Positions 53,410 through 64,000 of a stretch of 64,000 bases of DNA are shown here, piece by piece. The DNA is from an uncultured Gammaproteobacteria bacterium (GTDB lineage: Bacteria; Pseudomonadota; Gammaproteobacteria; Steroidobacterales; Steroidobacteraceae). The translations under genes and the position numbers were made by a program. The notes under the pieces are model-generated. The model was not told where the DNA came from and did not search any database. It saw only the letters and a list, made by a program, of their open reading frames with translations. Location: positions 401,756 through 465,755 of the forward strand of contig CAVPQN010000002.1 of NCBI GenBank assembly GCA_963707565.1, in the 5' to 3' direction. The stretch's first letter is position 1. The number at the start of each line of letters is the position of its first letter.

Positions 53410-54042
53410 TCAGCTATCTCCTGCGGGCTTCAACAGCCCCTGGACGTGTTCCGCCAGACCGGCCCGGTCGCTGCGCGACTTGTCTCCCTGGCCGCAAAAT
53501 ACCGCCTCCAGGTCGGCCAGGGCCGCAGCAAAGTCCTGGTTAACCACGATGAAGTCAAACTCGCGCCAGTGGGTCATTTCCTTGACGGAATCGGCCAGGC
53601 GCCGGGCGATGGCGGCGTCGCTGTCAGTGCGGCGGCTGCGCAGGCGATTTTCCAGTTCAGCGCGCGACGGCGGCAGGATGAAAACATGAATAGCTTCGGG
53701 CAGGTGCTGGCGCACCTGGCGCGCACCCTGGATGTCGATTTCCAGGATCAGGTCGCGGCCCTGGTCCAGTGCCGCCTCCACCTGCCGGCGCTCGGTACCG
53801 TAAAGGTTACCGAAGACTTCGGCGTATTCGACAAAGGCGCCGGCATCGACGCGGCGCTGGAATTCCTCGCGGCTGACGAAGAAGTAGTCGTGTCCGTCGA
53901 CCTCGCCACTGCGCGGCGCACGGGTGGTGCAGGAAACAGAGAAGGACAGCCTGGGCAGGCGCTGCATCAGCGCCCGCATCAGGCTGGTCTTGCCGGCGCC
54001 GGAGGGCGCCGCGACGACGAACAAGTGGCCGCGACCAGTCAT
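53410..54042 (-). CDS. gmk: Guanylate kinase
   Basis: P-loop APSGAGKTSL. Start at ATG 54042. Confidence 0.95.
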   Translation of the reverse strand: MTGRGHLFVVAAPSGAGKTSLMRALMQRLPRLSFSVSCTTRAPRSGEVDGHDYFFVSREEFQRRVDAGAFVEYAEVFGNLYGTERRQVEAALDQGRDLILEIDIQGARQVRQHLPEAIHVFILPPSRAELENRLRSRRTDSDAAIARRLADSVKEMTHWREFDFIVVNQDFAAALADLEAVFCGQGDKSRSDRAGLAEHVQGLLKPAGDS

Positions 54043-54095
54043 AGGAGTCCGTTGGGAGTGTCGTCGCAGACTACCATGCCGCACAATTTCACCAA

Positions 54096-54737
54096 ATGCA
54101 GCAAGCCCGCGCACTGACACGAGACACGCTGGTCGCGGCCGCGAAAACATTGGCGCGACGTGACCCGGACCTGGCCGATTTGCTGGGTCGCCATGGCGTG
54201 CCGCCGATGTGGGGGCGGCGGCCGGGCTTTGCCTGTCTGGTGCAGATCATTCTTGAGCAGCAGGTGTCACTGGTCGCTGCGCGGACGCTGTACCTGAGGC
54301 TGGTACGCGTTGCAGGCAGCGTGACGCCCGAGGCGATCCTGCAACTGGGTGAGGATGGCCTGCGCAATGCCGGGCTGACACGGCAAAAGGCTTCTTACTG
54401 TGTCGGCCTGGCGCAGAAGTTGTTGCGGCAGGAAATTGACCTCAGCGCGATTGCAGGCGGCGAAGATGGGGCCGGGCGAGAACAACTGCTGGCGGTACCC
54501 GGGCTGGGTCCGTGGACCGTGGATGTCTACTACCTGATGGCCCTGCGCCGGCCCGATGTCTGGCCGCAGGGCGATCTGGCGCTGGCCATCGCGCTCAAGC
54601 GCGCCAAGCGCCTGCGCGAGAGGCCCGATGCCACTCGCCAGCGAGCCATCACAAAAGCCTGGGCACCCTGGCGCTCGGTGGCGGCGCGGCTTCTCTGGCA
54701 GGCGTATCTTGCACATCGATCCGGCAACCCTATATAG
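54096..54737 (+). CDS. DNA-3-methyladenine glycosylase II family (AlkA-like, HhH-GPD)
   Basis: HhH block LLAVPGLGPWTVDVYYLMAL followed by WPQGDLAL (catalytic Asp). Confidence 0.75.
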   Translation: MQQARALTRDTLVAAAKTLARRDPDLADLLGRHGVPPMWGRRPGFACLVQIILEQQVSLVAARTLYLRLVRVAGSVTPEAILQLGEDGLRNAGLTRQKASYCVGLAQKLLRQEIDLSAIAGGEDGAGREQLLAVPGLGPWTVDVYYLMALRRPDVWPQGDLALAIALKRAKRLRERPDATRQRAITKAWAPWRSVAARLLWQAYLAHRSGNPI

Positions 54738-56144: not shown

Positions 56145-56976
56145 CGCCAGGCTGATCATCGGCGTAGCGCCCAACGGCGCCCGACTGGGGCGCGACGATC
56201 ATCCCGCCCTGCCAATCACGGCCGCAGAGCTTGCGGTCTGCGCGCTGGACGTGGCCGCGGCAGGCGCCGCGCTCCTGCACCTTCACGTACGCGACGCCGC
56301 CGGCCAGCACAGCCTTGACGTCGGGCGTTACCGGGAGACCCTGGCCGCGATTCGAGAAGTGACTGGCGATCGCCTGATCCTGCAAGTGACCACGGAAGCG
56401 GCGGGCCAGTACAGTGCAGCCCAGCAGCGCGACATGGTGGAGACACTGCAGCCGGAGGCGGTATCGCTGGCCTTGGCGGAGTTGTGTCCTGACGAGGCCG
56501 CCGAGCCTGAGGCGCGCGCGTTTTTTTGTGGCCTGGCCCGCGCCGGCATCCTGATGCAGTTCATCTTGTATTCACCCGAGGAGTTGCTGCGCTTCGAGCG
56601 CCTGCGCCAGCAGGGGTTCTTCGGTGTGGAGCATCCATTCGTCTTGCTGGTGCTGGGACGCAAGGACAAGTCGAGCGCGGCCATGGGGCAGCAGATGAAG
56701 GCCTATCGTGAGGTGCTGCCACGCAGATCTTTTCCCTGGGCGGTGTGTGCCTTCGGCCGTGACGAGCTGGCGATGGCCATGGAGGCGGCGCGCCTGGGCG
56801 GGCATGCGCGTGTGGGTTTTGAGAACAATTGCCTGCTCGCTGACGGATCCGTGGCGGCAGACAACGCGGCGCTGGTGCGGCAACTGGTTGGGGCATTGCC
56901 CGCTACGGGTAGGCGACCGGCGGGTGCTGCGGAAGCCCGGCAGCTGCTATCCGGTATTGAACGGACCCTGGCCTAG
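56137..56976 (+). CDS. Beta-keto acid cleavage enzyme (BKACE / DUF849, 3-keto-5-aminohexanoate cleavage-like)
   Basis: N-terminal block IIGVAPNGAR...HPALPIT..E....A...GAALLHLHVRD. The GTG start overlaps the aminotransferase stop by 8 nt. Confidence 0.75.
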   Translation: MPDARLIIGVAPNGARLGRDDHPALPITAAELAVCALDVAAAGAALLHLHVRDAAGQHSLDVGRYRETLAAIREVTGDRLILQVTTEAAGQYSAAQQRDMVETLQPEAVSLALAELCPDEAAEPEARAFFCGLARAGILMQFILYSPEELLRFERLRQQGFFGVEHPFVLLVLGRKDKSSAAMGQQMKAYREVLPRRSFPWAVCAFGRDELAMAMEAARLGGHARVGFENNCLLADGSVAADNAALVRQLVGALPATGRRPAGAAEARQLLSGIERTLA

Positions 56977-57063
56977 ACCCGAGCCGGGCGACCGATGGCA
57001 TGCGCGCCGATTAGTCGTGGCACTGCCGTTATTTTCATTGCGTGTTGTCAAAATGTGCGGAAG

Positions 57064-57079
57064 TGTGATTATTGTCACG
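57064..57079. promoter_or_regulatory. CRP/Clp-type palindrome TGTGA-TTATTG-TCACG
   Basis: 9 of 10 match to TGTGA-N6-TCACA, in the AT-richer leader 127 nt upstream of the first DUF11 gene. It overlaps a possible TTGTCA-N16-GATTAT promoter (57045..57072). Confidence 0.4.
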
Positions 57080-57205
57080 TCGGGAATGCTCAGGACTCCC
57101 TCAGGATTCGTAGGGGCTTTGCACCCGATTAGTCTTTTGGATTAGGCATCACTAGTCCAAGCGATCAGGAGTACACGCCCGATGTCAGGGAAAGAGGGAC
57201 GGCAC

Positions 57206-57682
57206 ATGAAGATGAGTTTACGGGTCCTGTTGGCCAGCGCCCTGCTGGTGCTGGGCACCGCCCATGCTGCAGGCGGCCTGCAGCTGAGCAACCAGGTCTT
57301 CCAGGAAATCGAGGTCATCGGCGCGGACGGCAAGCCCGAACGCAAGAGAATTCCCGCCGCCACCATCGTGCCCGGGACCGAGGTGTTCTACGTGATCACC
57401 TACCGCAACACGGGCGACCAGCCCGCCGACAACGTTGCCATCACCAATCCGGTGCCAACCGAACTTGAATTCGTGGGAGTGCAGGGACCCGGGCCCACCA
57501 GCGAGGTTTCCGTAGATGGCGGGCAGTTGTTTGGCGCCCTGGCCGGCCTCTCGGTTACCGGTGTCGATGGCAAGTCACGTCAGGCGCAGACGCGAGACGT
57601 GACCCATGTGCGCTGGGTGCTCAACAACACCTTGCCGCCCGGTGCGGGCGGCGCAGTTTCGTTCAAGGCCCGGCTGAAGTAG
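57206..57682 (+). CDS. Secreted DUF11-fold protein (158 aa)
   Basis: Signal peptide MKMSLRVLLASALLVLGTAHA. DUF11 core VPGTEVFYVITYRNTGDQPADNVAITNPVPTELEFVG. SD-like GAGGGA lies 6 nt before the ATG. Confidence 0.8.
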   Translation: MKMSLRVLLASALLVLGTAHAAGGLQLSNQVFQEIEVIGADGKPERKRIPAATIVPGTEVFYVITYRNTGDQPADNVAITNPVPTELEFVGVQGPGPTSEVSVDGGQLFGALAGLSVTGVDGKSRQAQTRDVTHVRWVLNNTLPPGAGGAVSFKARLK

Positions 57683-57729
57683 CCGGCTGAGTTTTTGCAG
57701 AACCGACGCTTTTGCAAGGAGTGCGAGCA

Positions 57730-58830
57730 GTGAAATCCATATATCCAAGAGTCCTGGTAGCGATCCTGATGCTGGCAGGCGTACAGCAGGCGCAAGCCCT
57801 GGGTACGCTGCAAGGCACCAACGTTGCCAACACGGCCACCGTGAACTACACGGTCGGCGGTGTCCCCCAGCCGGGGGTGCCCAGCAATACGACGAACTTC
57901 CTGGTGGACCGGCGCATCAACCTGACAGTCGCGGAGGTGGGCGGTCTCGCCACCAACGTGATTCCAGGCGCGATTGACCGGGTCACTATGTTTACCGTGA
58001 CCAACACGACCAACGGCACCCAGGACTTTCGCCTGATCGCGACCAACGACGCCGCAGGCGCCGGCACGGCGTTTGGCAACACTGACAACTTCGACGGATC
58101 GAATATCCGCGTCTTTGTCGACAACGGCAACGGCATCTACGAGCCGGCGCTGGACACGGCAACGTTCATCGATGAGCTTGGCGCGGACCAGACCCGGACG
58201 GTGTTCGTCCTGATAGACATCCCGGTCACCCAGGTGAACGGCGACATCGCCGGCGTCACCCTGCAAGCGCGCGCGGCTAACGCCGGCGGCGCGAGTGTGC
58301 TGGGTGCCGATGCGACGCAGACTGCCGGTGCAGATACGCCGGGCGTGGTCGACACCGTATTCGGTGACGCCGCTGGCGCGCCGAACACCGCGGGCGACCT
58401 GGCGCGTGACGGCAGCCATAGTGATGACGACGAGTACGCCGTGGTTACGGCGGCGCTGACGGTCATCAAGAGCCAGGCCGTCATCAGCGACCCGTTCAAT
58501 GGCGCGGTCAACCCGAAGGCGATTCCCGGCGCGGTGATCGAGTATTGCATTGACATCAATAACACCGGCGCCACGCAGGCCGATGCCATCGTGATGACCG
58601 ATGCGATTCCCGCCAACACGACCTACCAGCCGGCCTCGATCCGGGTGGCGGCGGCTGGCGCAGGCACGACTTGCACCAGCGGCAGCGGCACGGCTGAGGA
58701 TGACGACGCTGCCGGTGTGGGCGATGCCGGCGACTTCAACGTGACGACGGCAGGCGCTGTCACGGTGCGCGGCGGCAACATTGCGGCGGCGACACGCTAC
58801 AAGGCCTTGTTCCGCGTCACCGTGAACTGA
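57730..58830 (+). CDS. Secreted DUF11-fold protein (366 aa), putative fibre/surface subunit
   Basis: GTG start 8 nt after AGGAG. Signal peptide VKSIYPRVLVAILMLAGVQQAQA. C-terminal DUF11 core AIPGAVIEYCIDINNTGATQADAIVMTDAIPANTTY. Confidence 0.8.
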   Translation: MKSIYPRVLVAILMLAGVQQAQALGTLQGTNVANTATVNYTVGGVPQPGVPSNTTNFLVDRRINLTVAEVGGLATNVIPGAIDRVTMFTVTNTTNGTQDFRLIATNDAAGAGTAFGNTDNFDGSNIRVFVDNGNGIYEPALDTATFIDELGADQTRTVFVLIDIPVTQVNGDIAGVTLQARAANAGGASVLGADATQTAGADTPGVVDTVFGDAAGAPNTAGDLARDGSHSDDDEYAVVTAALTVIKSQAVISDPFNGAVNPKAIPGAVIEYCIDINNTGATQADAIVMTDAIPANTTYQPASIRVAAAGAGTTCTSGSGTAEDDDAAGVGDAGDFNVTTAGAVTVRGGNIAAATRYKALFRVTVN

Positions 58831-58854
58831 CGCGGGACTTGCCGAGCAGAAGAC

Positions 58855-58888
58855 GTCCGCCGGGGTTGCAAGGCCTCGGCGGACTTTT
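58855..58888 (+). terminator. Rho-independent terminator-like hairpin between the 366-aa gene and the giant gene
   Basis: GTCCGCCG-N14-CGGCGGAC (8-bp perfect stem, extendable by G-T, G-C and G-C pairs) followed directly by TTTT. Confidence 0.6.
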
Positions 58889-58904
58889 GCTAACAGAAGA
58901 GCCG

Positions 58905-61900
58905 ATGCACGCGAGCAATGCTGGAAATCGATGGCTGGGCATTACGGCAACACTGTTGCTGGCGCTGGTCATCGCCCCGGCATCGGCAGTTACCATCAGC
59001 AATACGGCGACAGTTTCCTTCCTGGATGGCCCGACGCCGCGCAATATCACCAGCAACACCGTCACGCTGGAAACCATTCCGCCACCGGCGCCCGCCATTG
59101 TTGAATTCCTGCGCTTTGCCCCGGGGTCGCCGGGCAGCGTCGCCACACCGGCCGATGGCGGTTCCTGCCAGGACGGCATGGGAGCTTTCAGTCCACTACC
59201 GCCGGTAACGGATTCTGCCGGCGCCAACATCAATGTCGTGTCGGCGCCGATCTTCGATGCCGCCTCATTCCAGCTGGGCGAGGCCGTTTTCGTGCGCCTG
59301 ACCGACGCCAACCGCAACCTCGATCCCTTGCTGCGGGATTTCATCGACCTGCGCATCACCACCAGTACCGGCGATGAGGAAGTCCTGCGCCTGCAGGAAA
59401 CCGCGATCGATACCGGTATGTTTGTCACGGCCTTGCAGGGCGTTGCCATGCCGCCGGCGGCAACACGTTTTGATTGCCGCCTTTCGGTGGTCCAGGGCGC
59501 CAGCCTGCTGGTGGAGTACATCGACATCCTGTTTCCGGCCGACATGGCGCAGGACAGCGCCCTGGTCGATCCCTTCGGCGTCGTCTTTGATTCCTCCACC
59601 GGCGCACCGGTCAATGGCGTGACGGTAAACTTGCTGGATGCCTTGACCGGCCTGCCGGCGACGGTGTTCGGTGTCGACGGCAGCAGCAGTTATCCGTCGA
59701 CGGTTAGCAGCGGCGCAGTGGTGAGCGATGCCAGTGGCCGCAGCTACACCCAGCCACCGGGCGGCTTCCAGTTTCCGGTGGTGGCGCCGGGCACCTACAT
59801 CCTGCAAGTGACGCCGCCTGCCACCTATGGCGCGCCGTCCGTGGTAGCGCTGGTCGTGTTGCAGGCGCTGCTTGATCCGGCGGGCAATCCCTACGTGGTC
59901 GGTCAGGGCTCCTTCGGTGACGCCTTCGCGCGTCCGGCAGCGCCAGGCTTCCGCGTGGACATCCCGATTGACCCCGTGCAGACCGGCCTGCTGCTGCAAA
60001 AGCGCGCCTCCACGACGGAAGTCTCGGCCGGAGAATTCCTGCAATACCGGCTGACACTGCAGAACCTCAATACCGTTGGTGCAATCGTCAATGCCGAGAT
60101 CAGCGACACGCTGCCGCCGGGCTTGCGCTACCAGGCCGGCTCGCTGCGTATCGCCGGCCAGCCGGCAGCGGACCCCATCATCAGCGCCGATGGACAGGGT
60201 TTGACCATTGCCGTGGGCACCCTCGTCGGGGGTGGCGTGGTCGATGTCAGTTACGTTGTCCAGGTCAGCGCCGGCGCACACGCCGGCGACGCGATCAACC
60301 GTGCGACCGCCACCGCCAGTGGTGGGCTCGAGTCCAATGTGGCGGTGGCTGCGGTACGCATCCGTGAGCCATTCTTCAGCGGTCAGTTCACCATCATCGG
60401 CCGCGTGGTCGAGGGCGAGTGCAATACGCCCTGGCATGAACTGAAAGGCGTGCCGCAAGTGCGCATGCTGCTCGACGATGGCACCTACGTGCCCACTGAC
60501 CGCGATGGCCAGTTCCACTTTGAGGGCGTCCGGCCCGGCACGCACGTGGTGCAACTGGACCTCGACAGCCTACCCCCCGAGCTGGAGGTGACGCCGTGCC
60601 TCCAGAACAGTCGCTTTGCTGGGCGCTCGTTCTCGCAGTTCGTGGAAGCGCAGGGCGGCAGCCTGTGGCGCACCGACTTCTACCTGCGCCGGCGCGATGG
60701 CCAGGTCGGCATTCGCCTGCATAGCGCGCTGGTGGCAGAGGATGTGGGTGGCGCGTTGGCCTTCCGCATGGAACTGGATGGTGGCCGGGTTGCCGTGCAG
60801 AAACTGGCGGCCACCGCGCAGCTGCCGGAGGGCGTGAGTTTCACTCCGGGTAGCGCGCGTGTGGATGGTGTCGCAGTCGCTGATCCGGTGTTCGCGGATG
60901 GTTACCTTACCTTCCGTCTTGGCGATCCTGGCGCCCATTGGCGCCACGTCATTGAGTTTGGCGGCCGTGCGGCAGGTGCCGTCAGGCCTGGTGAGGTCCG
61001 TGAGCACACGCTGCGCGCGCAGTTCGACTCAGGCATGGCCAGCCTCAAGCCGGAAGGCGCGGTCGCAGTGAACGACCTCATCGCCACGCTGCAGGGCACA
61101 AGCATCAGGCGCATAGCCGTGGTGGGGCACACTGACCGCCAGTTGCTGACCGCCGCTCGCACAAAGATCTTCGCCGACAACATCGTGTTGTCGCAGGCGC
61201 GTGCCCAGACTGTGGCGCAAGCGCTGGCCAGGGGCCTTGGCATGTCGATGGAGCAGTTCAGCACCGACGGCAAGGGCCCGGGCGAGCCGCTGGTGGTCGA
61301 GGACACACCGGCGGACAGGGCCGTCAATCGCCGCGTTGACGTCATCGTCTTCAGTGAGGATGCTGAGACCATTGCGGGACTGGACTGCCCGACGGGGGGC
61401 TACTTGAGCAAGGCGGTGGCGAGCTTCGTCCTGGCGGACAAGGCGAGTGCGCGTACGCCGATGGCAGAAAGTGCGCTGGCCTGTGTGGCAGTGACGGAGC
61501 GCAGCGAGAGCGACAGCCATCGTCAGGCGACCACCGTGACCGGCGCGGGTGAGTTGCTTGACGCTGCAGCCACCACCCAGCAAGCACAAGTCCGGCGGCA
61601 GGCCATTGTCGGCAGCGCGCAAGCCGCCGGCGCCGAGACCAACTGGCTGGACCAGCAATCGCCGGGCATGGCGTGGCTGTTTCCTGCTGCTGGCCACAAT
61701 CCCCGCGCACCCACACAGCGCGTGGTGATCAAGCATGAGCCCGGCCAGACCGTGGCCCTGAAATACCGGGGCCAGGCGGTGGACCCGCTGAATTTTGATG
61801 GCACGCGAAGCGACGCAGCGCAAACCGTGGCCATCAGCAGCTGGCGTGGCCTGCCACTGCGCGATGGCGAAAACTATTTCACCGCCGAGGTGATGGACGC

Positions 61901-64000
61901 GCACGGTGCAGTCGTCAGGACGTTGTCCCATACCGTGCACTATGCCAACCAGGTGGCTCGCGCCGAGCTGGTGCCCGAAGAGTCGGTGCTGGTGGCCGAT
62001 GGCCTGCAGCGCCCGGTGATCGCAGTGCGCATGCTGGATCGCAGTGGCCACCCGGTGCGCCACGGCGTGACCGGCGCTTATCGCCTGAATGCGCCCTACG
62101 TGGCCGCGCCACAGCTTGATGGCGAGCAGCAGCGACAACTGGCTGGCCTCGATCGCCACTCGCCCACCTTCCGTATCGAGGGTGACAATGGCGTGGCCTA
62201 TATCGAACTGGCACCGACCACGGCCAGTGGCAGCGTGGTGCTGGGCTTCAGCTTCCCGCGGGATGAGCGCACCACGCACAACGCAGAGTTGCGGGTCTGG
62301 CTTGAGGCGCAGCCGCGCGACTGGGTGGTGGTCGGCTTCGCTGCGGGAACCGTCGCCTACAACACCCTGAGCGGCAACATGCAGGCGCTTGCGGGATCGG
62401 GCGAGGAGGACGGCGGATACACCGACGGCCAGGTGAGCCTGTATGCCAAGGGCCAGGTGCTCGGCAAGTGGCTGCTGACGCTCGCCTATGACTCCAGCAA
62501 GCCCACCGGGCGGCAGGGCCGCAGCAGCGTGCTTTCGACCATCGACCCGAATTCCTTCTACACGCTTTATGGTGATGGCAGCGGCCAGCTTTACGATGGC
62601 GCGAGCGCCGAGAAGCTGTACCTGAAGCTGGAACGCGACCAGTTCTATGCGCTGGTGGGTGACTACGAGACCGGCCTCGACCAAACCGAGCTGTCGCGCT
62701 ATAGCCGCACGCTGACGGGCATCAAGAGCGAGTTCCGTGGTGAGCGCATCAGCTTCACCGGCTTTGTTGCCGATACCGCGCAGAATTTTGCCCGCGATGA
62801 GATCCACGGCAACGGCACCTCGGGCCTGTACCGGCTGAGCCGCGGTCGCATCGTCATCAATGGCGAGCAGCTGCGCATCGAGACCCGCGACCGCTTCCGC
62901 TCGGAGATCATCGTCAGCAGCCGCCAGCTCCGGCGCCATCTCGACTACGACATCGACTATGACGCCGGCACGCTTCTCTTCCGCGAGCCGATCAATAGCC
63001 GCGACTTCAACTTCAATCCGATCTTCATCGTTGCCGAGTACGAAACCGTCGGCACTGCTGACAAGCACCTGAATGCGGGTGGTCGTATCGGCGTACAGCT
63101 GCTGGATGACAGGTTGAGTATGGGCGCCACGTTGCTGCGCGATGAGGCGGCACAGGGCAAGTCCAACCTCGGCGGTATCGACGCGAAGTTCCAGATCACC
63201 CCTGAAACTGAATTGCGCATCGAGGGCGCAATGAGTGATGGCTCGCTGTCGAATCGCGATGGCAGCGCCTACCTGGCAGAAGTCGAGCACCATAGCGGGA
63301 CGCTGGATGCGCTGGCCTATGTGCGACGCCAGTCGCCCGGATTCGGCGTGAATCAGCAAAATGCCGCCGAGGGCGGCACGCTCAAGGCCGGCCTCGACGC
63401 CCAGTTGCGCCTGAACGAGTGGCTGGCGGTGCAGGGTCAGGTGTATCGCGAGGAGAATCTGGACAGTGCGACGACGCGTGAAGTTGCAACCACCGGGCTG
63501 GAGTACCGCGGGGAACACTGGGGCGTGCGCGCCGGCGCACAGCTTGCGCAGGACGAGGCGATCACTGGCGAGAAGGCGGAGTCCCGCCAGGTCACGGTGG
63601 GCGCACATCGACGTTTCCTGGACCAGAAACTTGAGCTGATGATGCAGAACGAGTTCAGCCTCGGCGGCGACAATGACAGCGTGGACTTTCCCAGCCGTTA
63701 CCGGCTCGGCGCGGCCTACGCCCTCAGCGAGGATGTGCGCCTGGTGGCTTCCCACGAGATCACCGATGGCGAGGACTTCGACAGCTCGACCACGCGCCTG
63801 GGGGTGGAAGTGAAACCCTGGAAGGGCGCGCGACTGAGCAGCACCCTGAACCAGAGCGAGATTTCGGAATACGGGCCGCGCACGTTTGCGCTGTTCGGCC
63901 TGACCCAGTCCTTGCTGGTGGGTGAGCGTTGGGGTTTTGATCTGTCCACCGATGCCAGTCACACCATGGACCACGCCAGCACCGCACCCCTGGTGATCAA
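58905..64000 (+). CDS. Giant secreted multidomain protein (>1698 aa, 3' end outside window): DUF11 repeats, CarboxypepD_reg-like modules, internal OmpA-like domain, C-terminal beta-barrel-like region
   Basis: By my reading this plus-strand frame stays open from ATG 58905 to the window edge, so it is not in the ORF track. Signal peptide MHASNAGNRWLGITATLLLALVIAPASA. DUF11 core VSAGEFLQYRLTLQNLNTVGAIVNAEISDTLPPGLRY. OmpA block RRIAVVGHTDRQ...LSQARAQTVAQAL...ADRAVNRRVDVIVF. Confidence 0.85.
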   Translation, partial: MHASNAGNRWLGITATLLLALVIAPASAVTISNTATVSFLDGPTPRNITSNTVTLETIPPPAPAIVEFLRFAPGSPGSVATPADGGSCQDGMGAFSPLPPVTDSAGANINVVSAPIFDAASFQLGEAVFVRLTDANRNLDPLLRDFIDLRITTSTGDEEVLRLQETAIDTGMFVTALQGVAMPPAATRFDCRLSVVQGASLLVEYIDILFPADMAQDSALVDPFGVVFDSSTGAPVNGVTVNLLDALTGLPATVFGVDGSSSYPSTVSSGAVVSDASGRSYTQPPGGFQFPVVAPGTYILQVTPPATYGAPSVVALVVLQALLDPAGNPYVVGQGSFGDAFARPAAPGFRVDIPIDPVQTGLLLQKRASTTEVSAGEFLQYRLTLQNLNTVGAIVNAEISDTLPPGLRYQAGSLRIAGQPAADPIISADGQGLTIAVGTLVGGGVVDVSYVVQVSAGAHAGDAINRATATASGGLESNVAVAAVRIREPFFSGQFTIIGRVVEGECNTPWHELKGVPQVRMLLDDGTYVPTDRDGQFHFEGVRPGTHVVQLDLDSLPPELEVTPCLQNSRFAGRSFSQFVEAQGGSLWRTDFYLRRRDGQVGIRLHSALVAEDVGGALAFRMELDGGRVAVQKLAATAQLPEGVSFTPGSARVDGVAVADPVFADGYLTFRLGDPGAHWRHVIEFGGRAAGAVRPGEVREHTLRAQFDSGMASLKPEGAVAVNDLIATLQGTSIRRIAVVGHTDRQLLTAARTKIFADNIVLSQARAQTVAQALARGLGMSMEQFSTDGKGPGEPLVVEDTPADRAVNRRVDVIVFSEDAETIAGLDCPTGGYLSKAVASFVLADKASARTPMAESALACVAVTERSESDSHRQATTVTGAGELLDAAATTQQAQVRRQAIVGSAQAAGAETNWLDQQSPGMAWLFPAAGHNPRAPTQRVVIKHEPGQTVALKYRGQAVDPLNFDGTRSDAAQTVAISSWRGLPLRDGENYFTAEVMDAHGAVVRTLSHTVHYANQVARAELVPEESVLVADGLQRPVIAVRMLDRSGHPVRHGVTGAYRLNAPYVAAPQLDGEQQRQLAGLDRHSPTFRIEGDNGVAYIELAPTTASGSVVLGFSFPRDERTTHNAELRVWLEAQPRDWVVVGFAAGTVAYNTLSGNMQALAGSGEEDGGYTDGQVSLYAKGQVLGKWLLTLAYDSSKPTGRQGRSSVLSTIDPNSFYTLYGDGSGQLYDGASAEKLYLKLERDQFYALVGDYETGLDQTELSRYSRTLTGIKSEFRGERISFTGFVADTAQNFARDEIHGNGTSGLYRLSRGRIVINGEQLRIETRDRFRSEIIVSSRQLRRHLDYDIDYDAGTLLFREPINSRDFNFNPIFIVAEYETVGTADKHLNAGGRIGVQLLDDRLSMGATLLRDEAAQGKSNLGGIDAKFQITPETELRIEGAMSDGSLSNRDGSAYLAEVEHHSGTLDALAYVRRQSPGFGVNQQNAAEGGTLKAGLDAQLRLNEWLAVQGQVYREENLDSATTREVATTGLEYRGEHWGVRAGAQLAQDEAITGEKAESRQVTVGAHRRFLDQKLELMMQNEFSLGGDNDSVDFPSRYRLGAAYALSEDVRLVASHEITDGEDFDSSTTRLGVEVKPWKGARLSSTLNQSEISEYGPRTFALFGLTQSLLVGERWGFDLSTDASHTMDHASTAPLVI

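Follow-up and report, generated by a model that had tools for sequence, protein, structure and literature searches.

A gene cassette at the 3' end of a stretch of DNA from an uncultured Gammaproteobacteria bacterium (Steroidobacteraceae; GenBank assembly GCA_963707565.1, contig CAVPQN010000002.1, forward-strand positions 401,756 to 465,755) encodes Sec-exported proteins whose immunoglobulin (Ig)-like domains appear to be split between neighbouring polypeptides. We refer to the whole stretch of 64,000 nucleotides as the window, number it from its first letter, and call the three co-directional plus-strand genes that lie in it A, B and C. Our preferred interpretation, to which we give a probability of about 0.55, is that the locus is a self-contained pilus or fibre system in which subunits with incomplete CLIPPER (formerly DUF11) domains are joined by strand donation and probably locked by isopeptide bonds, with the giant protein C as the base.

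Gene A (57206-57682, + strand) encodes 158 amino acids (aa), or 166 aa if translation begins at an alternative ATG at 57182. Gene B (57730-58830, + strand, GTG start) encodes the 366-aa presumed major subunit, and gene C (58905-64000, + strand) is still open where the window ends. The 3' end of C was recovered through a protein that is 100% identical (P0001), which gives a full length of 1992 aa; 1698 of these are in the window, and the cut falls within a predicted barrel. The initial annotation of this DNA had described three co-directional genes of 158, 366 and more than 1698 aa behind a 229-nucleotide, AT-richer leader, and both the open reading frames (ORFs) and the GC content bear this out, although the implied start of gene C at 58906 is off by one nucleotide from its ATG at 58905. 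The sequences of A, B and C also carry the Sec-type signal peptides that had been assigned to them: all are of type I, with A-x-A sites and no lipobox Cys.

Three genes do not make up the whole operon, as had been supposed. The operon holds a fourth gene and, in most lineages, a fifth, as is evident from the homologous loci analysed here (82 were fetched, labelled L001 and so on). In the genome of the window, the fourth gene encodes D, an adhesin-like, 728-aa DUF7933/CLIPPER protein whose gene overlaps the stop codon of C by 4 bp just past the window end. It was read from a Logan contig (ERR12037370); proteins of this kind (670-728 aa; compare L030:2893-5079 and L002:15991-18003) end in a truncated acceptor domain with the sequence …QLQFRVRVE-COOH. 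The additional gene in most lineages encodes B', a paralogue of B of ~340 aa that is placed before A.

Incomplete CLIPPER domains and putative donor strands

CLIPPER is the new name of DUF11, an Ig domain of the CnaA-like type whose first-strand Lys and last-strand Asn are joined by an isopeptide bond under catalysis by an Asp; the domain is known only for intramolecular bonds of this type (PMC12617251). The earlier statement that the function of DUF11 proteins in proteobacteria is essentially uncharacterised is thus partly out of date. The DUF11-type cores that had been ascribed to all three proteins are recovered by profile searches, with A scoring 29 bits against PF01345 (cut-off 24.6) and 30.9 bits against TIGR01451, C scoring 30.5 and 42.3 bits, respectively, and B passing the cut-off of TIGR01451 only (35.5 bits, cut-off 24; 20 bits against PF01345, which is under its cut-off).

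One complete copy of the domain is present in C (59991-60320, + strand; residues 363-472, the 30.5-bit PF01345 match), where the triad consists of K366, D401 and N465. D401 and N465 do not vary among 24 C sequences, in which K366 is conserved to at least 90%, and this arrangement would be the signature of an intramolecular isopeptide bond. In B, the signal peptide is followed by a donor-strand module, then by an Ig-like N-domain and finally by a C-terminal CLIPPER domain that is incomplete; the C-terminal domain holds the Lys and Asp of the triad, and the N-terminal segment holds the Asn. The acceptor domain (58441-58827, + strand; residues 238-366) comprises CLIPPER strands A-F only and ends in …FRVTVN-COOH. 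The donor-strand module (57799-57903, + strand; residues 24-58, LGTLQGTNVA-N34-TATVNYTVGG…SNTTNF) corresponds to what, in a complete CLIPPER domain, is strand G together with the inter-domain linker. N34, K247 and D291 are invariant among 52 B sequences of 50-86% identity.

The same truncation recurs in the other subunits. When their C-terminal domains are aligned, A, B, B' and D are seen to stop at one and the same column, one residue past strand F (B, …FRVTVN; B', …FxVTI[ND]; D, …FRVRVE; A, …FKARLK, each followed by the terminal carboxylate). Because they stop there, all four lack strand G, the carrier of the isopeptide Asn. Both the Lys of strand A (VxKS) and the catalytic Asp (TDxIP) are retained in B, B' and D. 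In the family alignment of A both positions are usually replaced, that of the Asp by NNPVP or TNPVP (ITNPVP in the A protein of the window). A consists of a signal peptide and one CLIPPER-like domain ending in …VSFKARLK-COOH, and has no donor strand. Its match to the C-terminal domain of D (hhalign probability 99%, E 4.5e-18) indicates that A is a free-standing copy of the acceptor domain of D, minus the catalytic residues.

The strand missing from these domains has a counterpart at the opposite end of the neighbouring proteins. The mature N-termini of B, B' and C carry the motif I-x-N-T-A-x-V-x-[YF] followed by a GG…SN linker, which is the exact sequence that closes a canonical CLIPPER domain and leads to the next domain. 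When searched for near the N-terminus with the regular expression [IVL]xNx[AVG]x[AVILFG]x[FYW], the motif is found in 55 of 59 B, 32 of 42 B' and 65 of 71 C proteins, but in only one of 41 D proteins and in none of 57 A proteins.

A chimeric profile was made by joining the acceptor domain of B (residues 238-366) to its mature N-terminal segment (residues 24-62) in the alignment of 52 sequences, and was compared with a profile of the complete CLIPPER domain of C. The two are colinear over 125-129 columns (hhalign probability 97%, E 6e-11 to 1.6e-10), and the alignment pairs K247 with K366, D291 with D401 and N34 with N465. The hhalign score is 59.1 with the segment, 50.2 over 93 columns without it and 39.9 when the segment is reversed. 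Likewise, the PF01345 alignment of the B acceptor covers profile positions 10-67 by itself and 10-96 once the native segment is appended, whereas a shuffled segment gives no extension. The distance from the signal-peptidase site to N34 in B equals the length of the F-G loop in C, and thus successive subunits would meet, C-terminus to N-terminus, like the two sides of a nicked loop. The subunit-subunit interface that the initial annotation had sought from structure prediction can be read, in putative form, from these incomplete domains and N-terminal donor strands.

The arrangement of orphan halves suggests that donation occurs between polypeptides. A and D are truncated and have no donor of their own, C has a donor and no truncated domain, and these proteins are encoded side by side in an arrangement conserved across phyla, which argues for donation in trans.

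The AlphaFold2 (AF2) model of B contains two beta-sandwich domains (predicted local distance difference test score, pLDDT, 87; predicted template modelling score, pTM, 0.73). The N-terminal strand region is modelled with a pLDDT of ~90, which suggests that this strand is docked and not disordered. Foldseek searches with the model return only generic tandem-Ig matches (an adhesin, integrin legs, Cna and AgI/II) and are uninformative on assembly. Sequence searches of the Protein Data Bank (PDB) with A, B, the B chimera and the CLIPPER domain of C yielded only OmpA-domain matches or noise, and did not retrieve the CLIPPER structure 9IFR.

Two further features of the subunits were observed. Between acceptor strands A and B, the B proteins (residues 252-263, within 58441-58827) and D proteins (e.g. 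L002:15991-18003) share an insertion with the sequence S-D-P-F-N-G-x-x-N-P-K, which contains an invariant second Lys (K263 in B) and is absent from B', A and the complete domain of C. It might serve for a second cross-link, for metal binding or for specificity. In addition, B' proteins with Ser or Thr at the position of the donor Asn (e.g. SIQSAAQITY) occur in L037, L038, L044, L046 and L066, which are from Steroidobacter or Povalibacter, and in L017, L079 and L081; the loss of the Asn follows no clean pattern when compared with the presence or absence of D.

D proteins form a large and variable family of 600-2500 aa with beta-helix, CLIPPER or DUF7933 domains. A representative is usually present, either 5' of B' or directly 3' of C, and in many loci its gene overlaps the stop codon of C by 4 bp, as it does next to the window.

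Architecture of the giant protein C

The orphan donor tag of C (58989-59069, + strand; residues 29-55, VTIS-N33-TATVSF…SNTV) is followed by a Pro-rich linker (PPPAPA), and N33 and S50 are at least 90% conserved among the 24 C sequences. Because the linker comes directly after the motif, the donor of C looks like a tag on a leash and not like part of a domain. Farther along, residues ~117-220 (59250-59560) hold a conserved acidic motif (D134, N138, D140, D157, E159, E165, T166, G171 and F173) that reads 'LTDANRNLDP…GDEEVLRLQETxxDTGxF' and gives a weak match to the model of the anammox S-layer glycoprotein Kustd1514 (NF052345, E 1e-5). This region may be a Ca-binding beta-sandwich.

Between the complete CLIPPER domain and the barrel lies an OmpA-like peptidoglycan-binding domain (61023-61349, + strand; residues 707-815; PF00691, 46.8 bits, cut-off 27.2, E 4e-12), in agreement with the peptidoglycan anchor proposed earlier for this protein. 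It carries GHTD and NRRV motifs and matches the solved structures of YiaD, PomB and TssL, which is consistent with putative peptidoglycan binding. Matches of C to CarboxypepD_reg (27.3-30.9 bits) fall just under the cut-off of 32.3, and a match to OMP_b-brl is weak and below threshold.

We modelled residues 900-1992 of C with AF2 from 66 aligned sequences (pLDDT 79.7, pTM 0.78). The model begins with two Ig-like beta-sandwich domains (61671-62309, + strand; residues ~923-1135; model residues 24-123 and 139-236, pLDDT ~90), which are followed by a very large C-terminal beta-barrel (62436-64000, + strand; residues ~1178-1975 of 1992, with the window ending inside it). About 36-38 long antiparallel strands, assigned with DSSP, are predicted up to residue ~1975. 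The DSSP pattern places a small, highly conserved beta domain (62781-62981, + strand; residues ~1293-1359) after the sixth barrel strand, and the invariant residues of C cluster in this inserted domain, at E1299-F1359. The domain is a candidate plug in the model, in which its location is that of the plug in the ushers PapC and FimD. The protein ends in a conserved motif, GPYLxLRFKFDQ, that resembles the beta-signal of outer-membrane proteins.

Foldseek searches with the barrel return SlpA, LptD, SprA and MtrB as best matches, which are the largest known outer-membrane barrels, followed by TonB-dependent transporters and FimD (the latter at rank 38, with TM-scores of 0.16-0.21). The probable outer-membrane barrel of the initial annotation is thereby supported, and its nearest structural relatives are giant barrels. 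Scans of the barrel segment against Pfam and NCBIfam found no model that covers it, the only matches being the sub-threshold one to OMP_b-brl and a 9-bit match to SprA, so that the barrel of C appears to define a new family of unusual size. Beyond its OmpA and CLIPPER domains, the giant protein matches none of the characterised families with which it was compared.

Conservation of the cassette

The gene order [D]-B'-A-B-C-[D], where brackets mark the two alternative places of D, is kept in the 82 fetched loci. A homologue of A (~165 aa) and one of B (~370 aa) are located directly 5' of C in almost every locus for which upstream DNA is available, and the genes that flank the cassette vary from genome to genome. 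Thus, the genes of the cassette stay together and in order across phyla, unlike their surroundings. The loci come from Steroidobacteraceae, Lysobacteraceae (Lysobacter, Luteimonas and Cognatiluteimonas), Moraxellaceae, Burkholderiales and Povalibacter uvarum DSM 26723, as well as from Nitrospirota, Desulfobacterota (including Geomobilimonas luticola JCM 17780), Krumholzibacteria and Eisenbacteria.

Homologues of C number at least 741 in a database clustered at 90%; for B, more than 1053 homologues were found. A HMMER scan with the barrel segment found 2,774 clusters (50% identity) at E <= 1e-3 and 1,029 at E <= 1e-30, and a scan using one genome per species confirmed relatives of C in at least 564 species across several phyla. 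Database names for the cassette proteins are restricted to "OmpA family protein", "DUF11 domain-containing protein", "uncharacterized repeat protein (TIGR01451 family)" and "hypothetical protein", and an exact-sequence cluster look-up returned neither names nor accessions for B or C. Full-text literature searches found no published description of the cassette; an apparent DUF11 match in the haloarchaeal 'tafi' proved to be DUF1102.

Several individual loci have unusual features. A Deltaproteobacteria metagenome-assembled genome (MAG) carries a second, smaller cassette 3' of the first (L075:16667-23028), whose proteins resembling A, B and C have 186, 621 and more than 1291 aa, respectively, and a genome is therefore not limited to a single system. 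One contig that was assigned to an archaeal bin (L051; JABDRC010000202.1, labelled 'Halobacteria archaeon') encodes a C homologue that has both an OmpA domain and an outer-membrane barrel, and in a MAG labelled 'Bordetella parapertussis' (L008) C is split into ORFs of 367 and 1682 aa. These last two oddities probably reflect mis-binning and a frameshift, not biology.

A model for fibre assembly and its alternatives

According to the model that we favour, subunits would be joined head to tail by donor-strand complementation, with the N-terminal strand of subunit n+1 completing the C-terminal domain of subunit n. A Lys-Asn isopeptide bond that forms spontaneously would then lock each joint, in the manner of a natural SpyTag/SpyCatcher pair. 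The order along the fibre would be D or A at the tip, then repeats of B' and B, and finally C at the base. This order follows from the distribution of the two halves, since A and D, as acceptors only, fit one end, C, as a donor only, fits the other, and B and B', which have both, can be repeated between them. The variable, adhesin-like N-terminal parts of D make it the natural tip.

The predicted barrel of C, with its approximately 36-38 strands, would serve both as outer-membrane passage, in the role of a probable translocation pore, and as platform, with the inserted domain as a possible plug. The OmpA domain would couple the base of the fibre to peptidoglycan. We suppose that subunits are added at the periplasmic face, as in chaperone-usher pili, until the strand of C terminates and anchors the fibre. 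Addition at this face is favoured because the OmpA domain places the N-terminal half of C in the periplasm, but this is the least certain step of the model.

A number of points weigh against this interpretation. The whole account of cassette and fibre is computational. The preference for donation in trans over cis depends on the logic of orphan donors and orphan acceptors in the sequences, and the docked strand in the monomer model of B fits self-complementation in cis equally well. Adding the N-terminal segment to the B acceptor lengthened the PF01345 alignment but did not raise its bit score. In about one quarter of the B' proteins, the donor Asn is replaced by Ser or Thr, so that their joints cannot be isopeptide-locked and not every joint would be covalent. 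A, as an acceptor-only protein, would be either a plain non-covalent cap or tip, or a factor that masks donor strands. Closure and strand number of the barrel are predictions of the model, all Foldseek TM-scores obtained with it are low (at most 0.29), and the OmpA domain is missing from some C homologues. Finally, a donor strand tethered to C near the pore would be expected to end assembly at once unless it were masked, and the model gives no reason why it should not.

A competing scheme with the same parts has the fibre grow outside the cell in a manner resembling that of curli. Monomers would exit through the barrel of C, whose surface-exposed donor tag would nucleate a fibre that grows distally, each new acceptor capturing the free N-terminal strand of the last subunit, with the tip capped reversibly by A, which has no Lys or Asp, or covalently by D as an adhesin. 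The polarity of donors and acceptors fits this scheme as well as it fits growth from the base, the universal presence of an acceptor-only A without catalytic residues would be explained by a reversible, length-controlling cap, and folded Ig domains could fit through a barrel of about 36-38 strands. The N-terminal part of C also has an isopeptide-stabilised CLIPPER domain of the type typical of exposed stalks (PMC12617251). Nonetheless, we regard this scheme as unlikely, though as the strongest of the competing explanations. The OmpA domain (residues 707-815), which is expected to be periplasmic, lies between the N-terminal region and the barrel, and thus the chain would have to thread back through its own pore; moreover, an open giant pore through which free monomers diffuse needs gating, and none is evident.

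Another way to read the same proteins dispenses with a polymer. B and B' would then be circularly permuted CLIPPER proteins completed in cis, possibly with an intramolecular isopeptide bond, C would be mainly an envelope tether and giant porin like SlpA of Deinococcus, and A, B and D would be its monomeric partners at the surface or in the periplasm. The AF2 monomer of B, with its confidently placed N-terminal strand and defined inter-domain geometry (pTM 0.73), accords with this view, as do the best Foldseek match of the C barrel, which is to SlpA, a peptidoglycan-tethered barrel protein, and the restriction of known CLIPPER bonds to intramolecular ones (PMC12617251). We find it a little less probable again than distal growth, because truncated A and D proteins without their own donor, encoded beside a C donor on a Pro-rich leash without a truncated domain, are orphan halves for which only donation in trans makes sense. 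Folding back of the strand is, moreover, a tendency of monomer predictions for known donor-strand pilins. A 'closed' form of TafA has been described (PMC11821415). A quite improbable alternative is that C is a self-exporting adhesin of the autotransporter type, composed of an N-terminal Ig-like passenger and a barrel translocator, with A, B and D as unrelated co-regulated secreted proteins. The domain order of C has that general form, with beta-sandwiches towards the N-terminus and, at the C-terminus, a barrel that closes with an aromatic motif. However, no Pfam match to autotransporters or to TpsB/POTRA proteins was found, the predicted barrel has approximately three times the 12-16 strands of type V translocators, a peptidoglycan-binding domain separates the supposed passenger from the barrel, and the strict A-B-C synteny and complementary termini would be left unexplained.

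Returning to the split-domain fibre, we place the cassette among the donor-strand pili, with a substantial chance that it would emerge from experiment as a new pilus class. We hold with less assurance, at somewhat under even odds, that it represents a new class of Gram-negative pilus, free of chaperone and sortase, with covalently locked split-CLIPPER subunits and single-chain barrels that both export the fibre and tie it to peptidoglycan, distributed over hundreds of environmental species in at least five phyla. As part of that same tentative proposal, barrels of about 36-38 strands would rival SprA as the largest known.

Hairpin, leader and flanking genes

A terminator-like hairpin (58855-58884, + strand; 13 bp, 9 of them GC) followed by TTTT up to 58888 lies between B and C, as had been noted at first inspection. 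L001, L002, L005 and L059, which form the closest clade, have it at an unchanged offset and with compensatory changes, and a hairpin is present 3' of B in 24 of 59 loci, compared with a background of ~22%. The hairpin probably acts as an attenuator that strongly favours the subunits over the platform; in the proposed fibre, it would keep expression of the subunits above that of C.

The leader (56977-57205, + strand; 229 nucleotides) separates gene A from the end of a BKACE gene at 56976 and has a GC content of 0.575-0.593, compared with ~0.65 in the flanks. A scan of it found a single sigma-70-like promoter match (57045-57072, TTGTCA-16-GATTAT), which is a consensus match only, and AGAGGGA forms a ribosome-binding site ahead of gene A. 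ARAGORN and Rfam scans of the window detected no RNA elements, and hence no riboswitch in the leader.

The genes upstream of the cassette encode a guanylate kinase, an HhH-GPD glycosylase, a class-III aminotransferase and the BKACE enzyme, all unrelated to the cassette. The start of the glycosylase ORF (54096, + strand) overlaps the 5' end of the guanylate kinase ORF (53410-54150, - strand) by ~55 nucleotides, and the listed start codons of these two ORFs are probably over-extended. In the two closest fully annotated relatives, a gene for a GGDEF protein (diguanylate cyclase) is located directly 5' of gene A (L001:6780-8012 and L002:6849-8090), in the place that the BKACE gene occupies in the window. 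This neighbour hints at a link to cyclic di-GMP and biofilm control.

Significance

If the interpretation is correct, the cassette would be a sixth Gram-negative route to surface fibres, one that combines the strand exchange of chaperone-usher pili with covalent robustness of the Gram-positive type and needs neither chaperone nor sortase. It would also answer in part a question posed in the isopeptide literature, namely how far this chemistry extends outside Gram-positive bacteria, with a bond formed between polypeptides in a diderm, and its new family of giant outer-membrane barrels would bear on how folded proteins pass across the outer membrane. Protein engineering would gain natural, orthogonal tag/catcher pairs, with B, B' and C as sources of donors and A, B, B' and D as sources of acceptors. 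Lineages of soil, sediment and groundwater (Steroidobacteraceae, Lysobacteraceae, Nitrospirota and Desulfobacterota) commonly carry the cassette, which could therefore matter for attachment and biofilm formation there. Cultured carriers, among them Povalibacter uvarum DSM 26723, Cognatiluteimonas lumbrici and Geomobilimonas luticola JCM 17780, make the system testable.

Comparison with known systems

The view taken at the outset, that the locus fits no known route of fibre assembly, withstood tests of membership in the chaperone-usher, sortase, type V pilus, autotransporter and two-partner secretion, curli, type I secretion system (T1SS)/RTX and type IX secretion system (T9SS) families, all of which failed. 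The components whose absence had been remarked upon are indeed missing from the cassette and from the six neighbourhoods annotated with Pfam: these contain no PapD-like chaperone, usher, sortase, POTRA protein, ABC/T1SS component or curli component, and the cassette has no LPXTG motif.

In function, the cassette would resemble chaperone-usher pili (Fim, Pap and the archaic Csu/CupE). They share with the cassette Sec-exported Ig-like subunits that have an incomplete fold and an N-terminal donor strand, an acceptor-only tip adhesin and a donor-only terminator (by analogy, as the fold family differs), one large outer-membrane barrel protein in the operon with apparently a small domain inserted after strand 6, and a hairpin 3' of the major-subunit gene. 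However, the platform of the cassette carries its own donor strand and an OmpA domain, its predicted barrel has about 36-38 strands and not 24, and its subunits are CnaA-like CLIPPER proteins with a conserved Lys-Asp-Asn triad, so that the joints are probably covalent. No match to the chaperone families PF00345 and PF02753 was found in the cassette proteins or in the six neighbourhoods, and the barrel segment does not match the usher family PF00577 even at E values up to 10. Membership was rejected on these grounds, although the two systems would function alike.

The fibres of BsaA, a TasA-family protein of Clostridium perfringens, are formed by strand exchange followed by an isopeptide lock (bioRxiv 10.1101/2024.11.04.621531). 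This 'donor-strand exchange and lock' resembles our model in the insertion of an N-terminal strand into the neighbour and in a spontaneous intermolecular Asn-Lys bond with an acidic catalyst and no sortase. It differs in its TasA/camelysin-like fold, its monoderm host, the lack of an outer-membrane component and the need for the SipW signal peptidase. Pfam finds no TasA-family match in A, B, C or D, the cassette has no signal peptidase gene, and neither Pfam nor PDB searches link the two, which leaves a resemblance in mechanism only. Similarly, the threads of Sulfolobus combine donor-strand complementation with isopeptide bonds (PMC9715654). Like other archaeal donor-strand pili, these threads (Saci_0406) are chaperone-free donor-strand filaments with intermolecular isopeptide bonds, but their bond runs from the N-terminal amine to an Asn in the second subunit along (n to n+2), their hosts lack an outer membrane, no barrel platform is involved, and they are unrelated to the cassette in sequence.

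Sortase pili (SpaA, RrgB and BcpA) also have isopeptide domains of the CnaA/CnaB type, covalent links between subunits and a fibre that is finally tied to peptidoglycan. In contrast, the cassette has no sortase, LPXTG motif or pilin-motif Lys, the predicted linkage is made by completing a split domain, and peptidoglycan would be held non-covalently through OmpA. Sortase pili were rejected because the subunits end in …FRVTVN, …FKARLK and …FRVRVE, without LPXTG or a hydrophobic tail, and no sortase Pfam match was found in the annotated neighbourhoods. Type V (Bacteroidota) pili were rejected because the signal peptides are of type I with A-x-A sites and no lipobox Cys. Type V secretion was rejected for want of a Pfam match (PF03797, and PF03865 with POTRA) and because the predicted barrel is far larger than 12-16 strands. 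Membership in the curli and T1SS/RTX systems was likewise discarded, as neither the cassette nor the six annotated loci contain such a component.

The giant barrels SlpA of Deinococcus, SprA of the T9SS and LptD are the best structural matches to C, and SlpA also combines a cell-wall-binding domain with a very large barrel. Nonetheless, TM-scores are 0.11-0.29, no significant sequence match exists, and the domain order and partners differ. SprA itself was rejected, with 9.1 bits and an E value of 0.15 against TIGR04189, compared with a threshold of 200 bits, and Foldseek TM-scores of 0.11-0.19. The CLIPPER stalk domains of fibrillar adhesins (PDB 9IFR) belong to the same family as the domains of the cassette and have the same Lys-Asp-Asn triad; C and D contain complete copies. 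In these stalks, the known bond is formed inside one domain of one long polypeptide, whereas the terminal domain of the cassette subunits would be split over two polypeptides.

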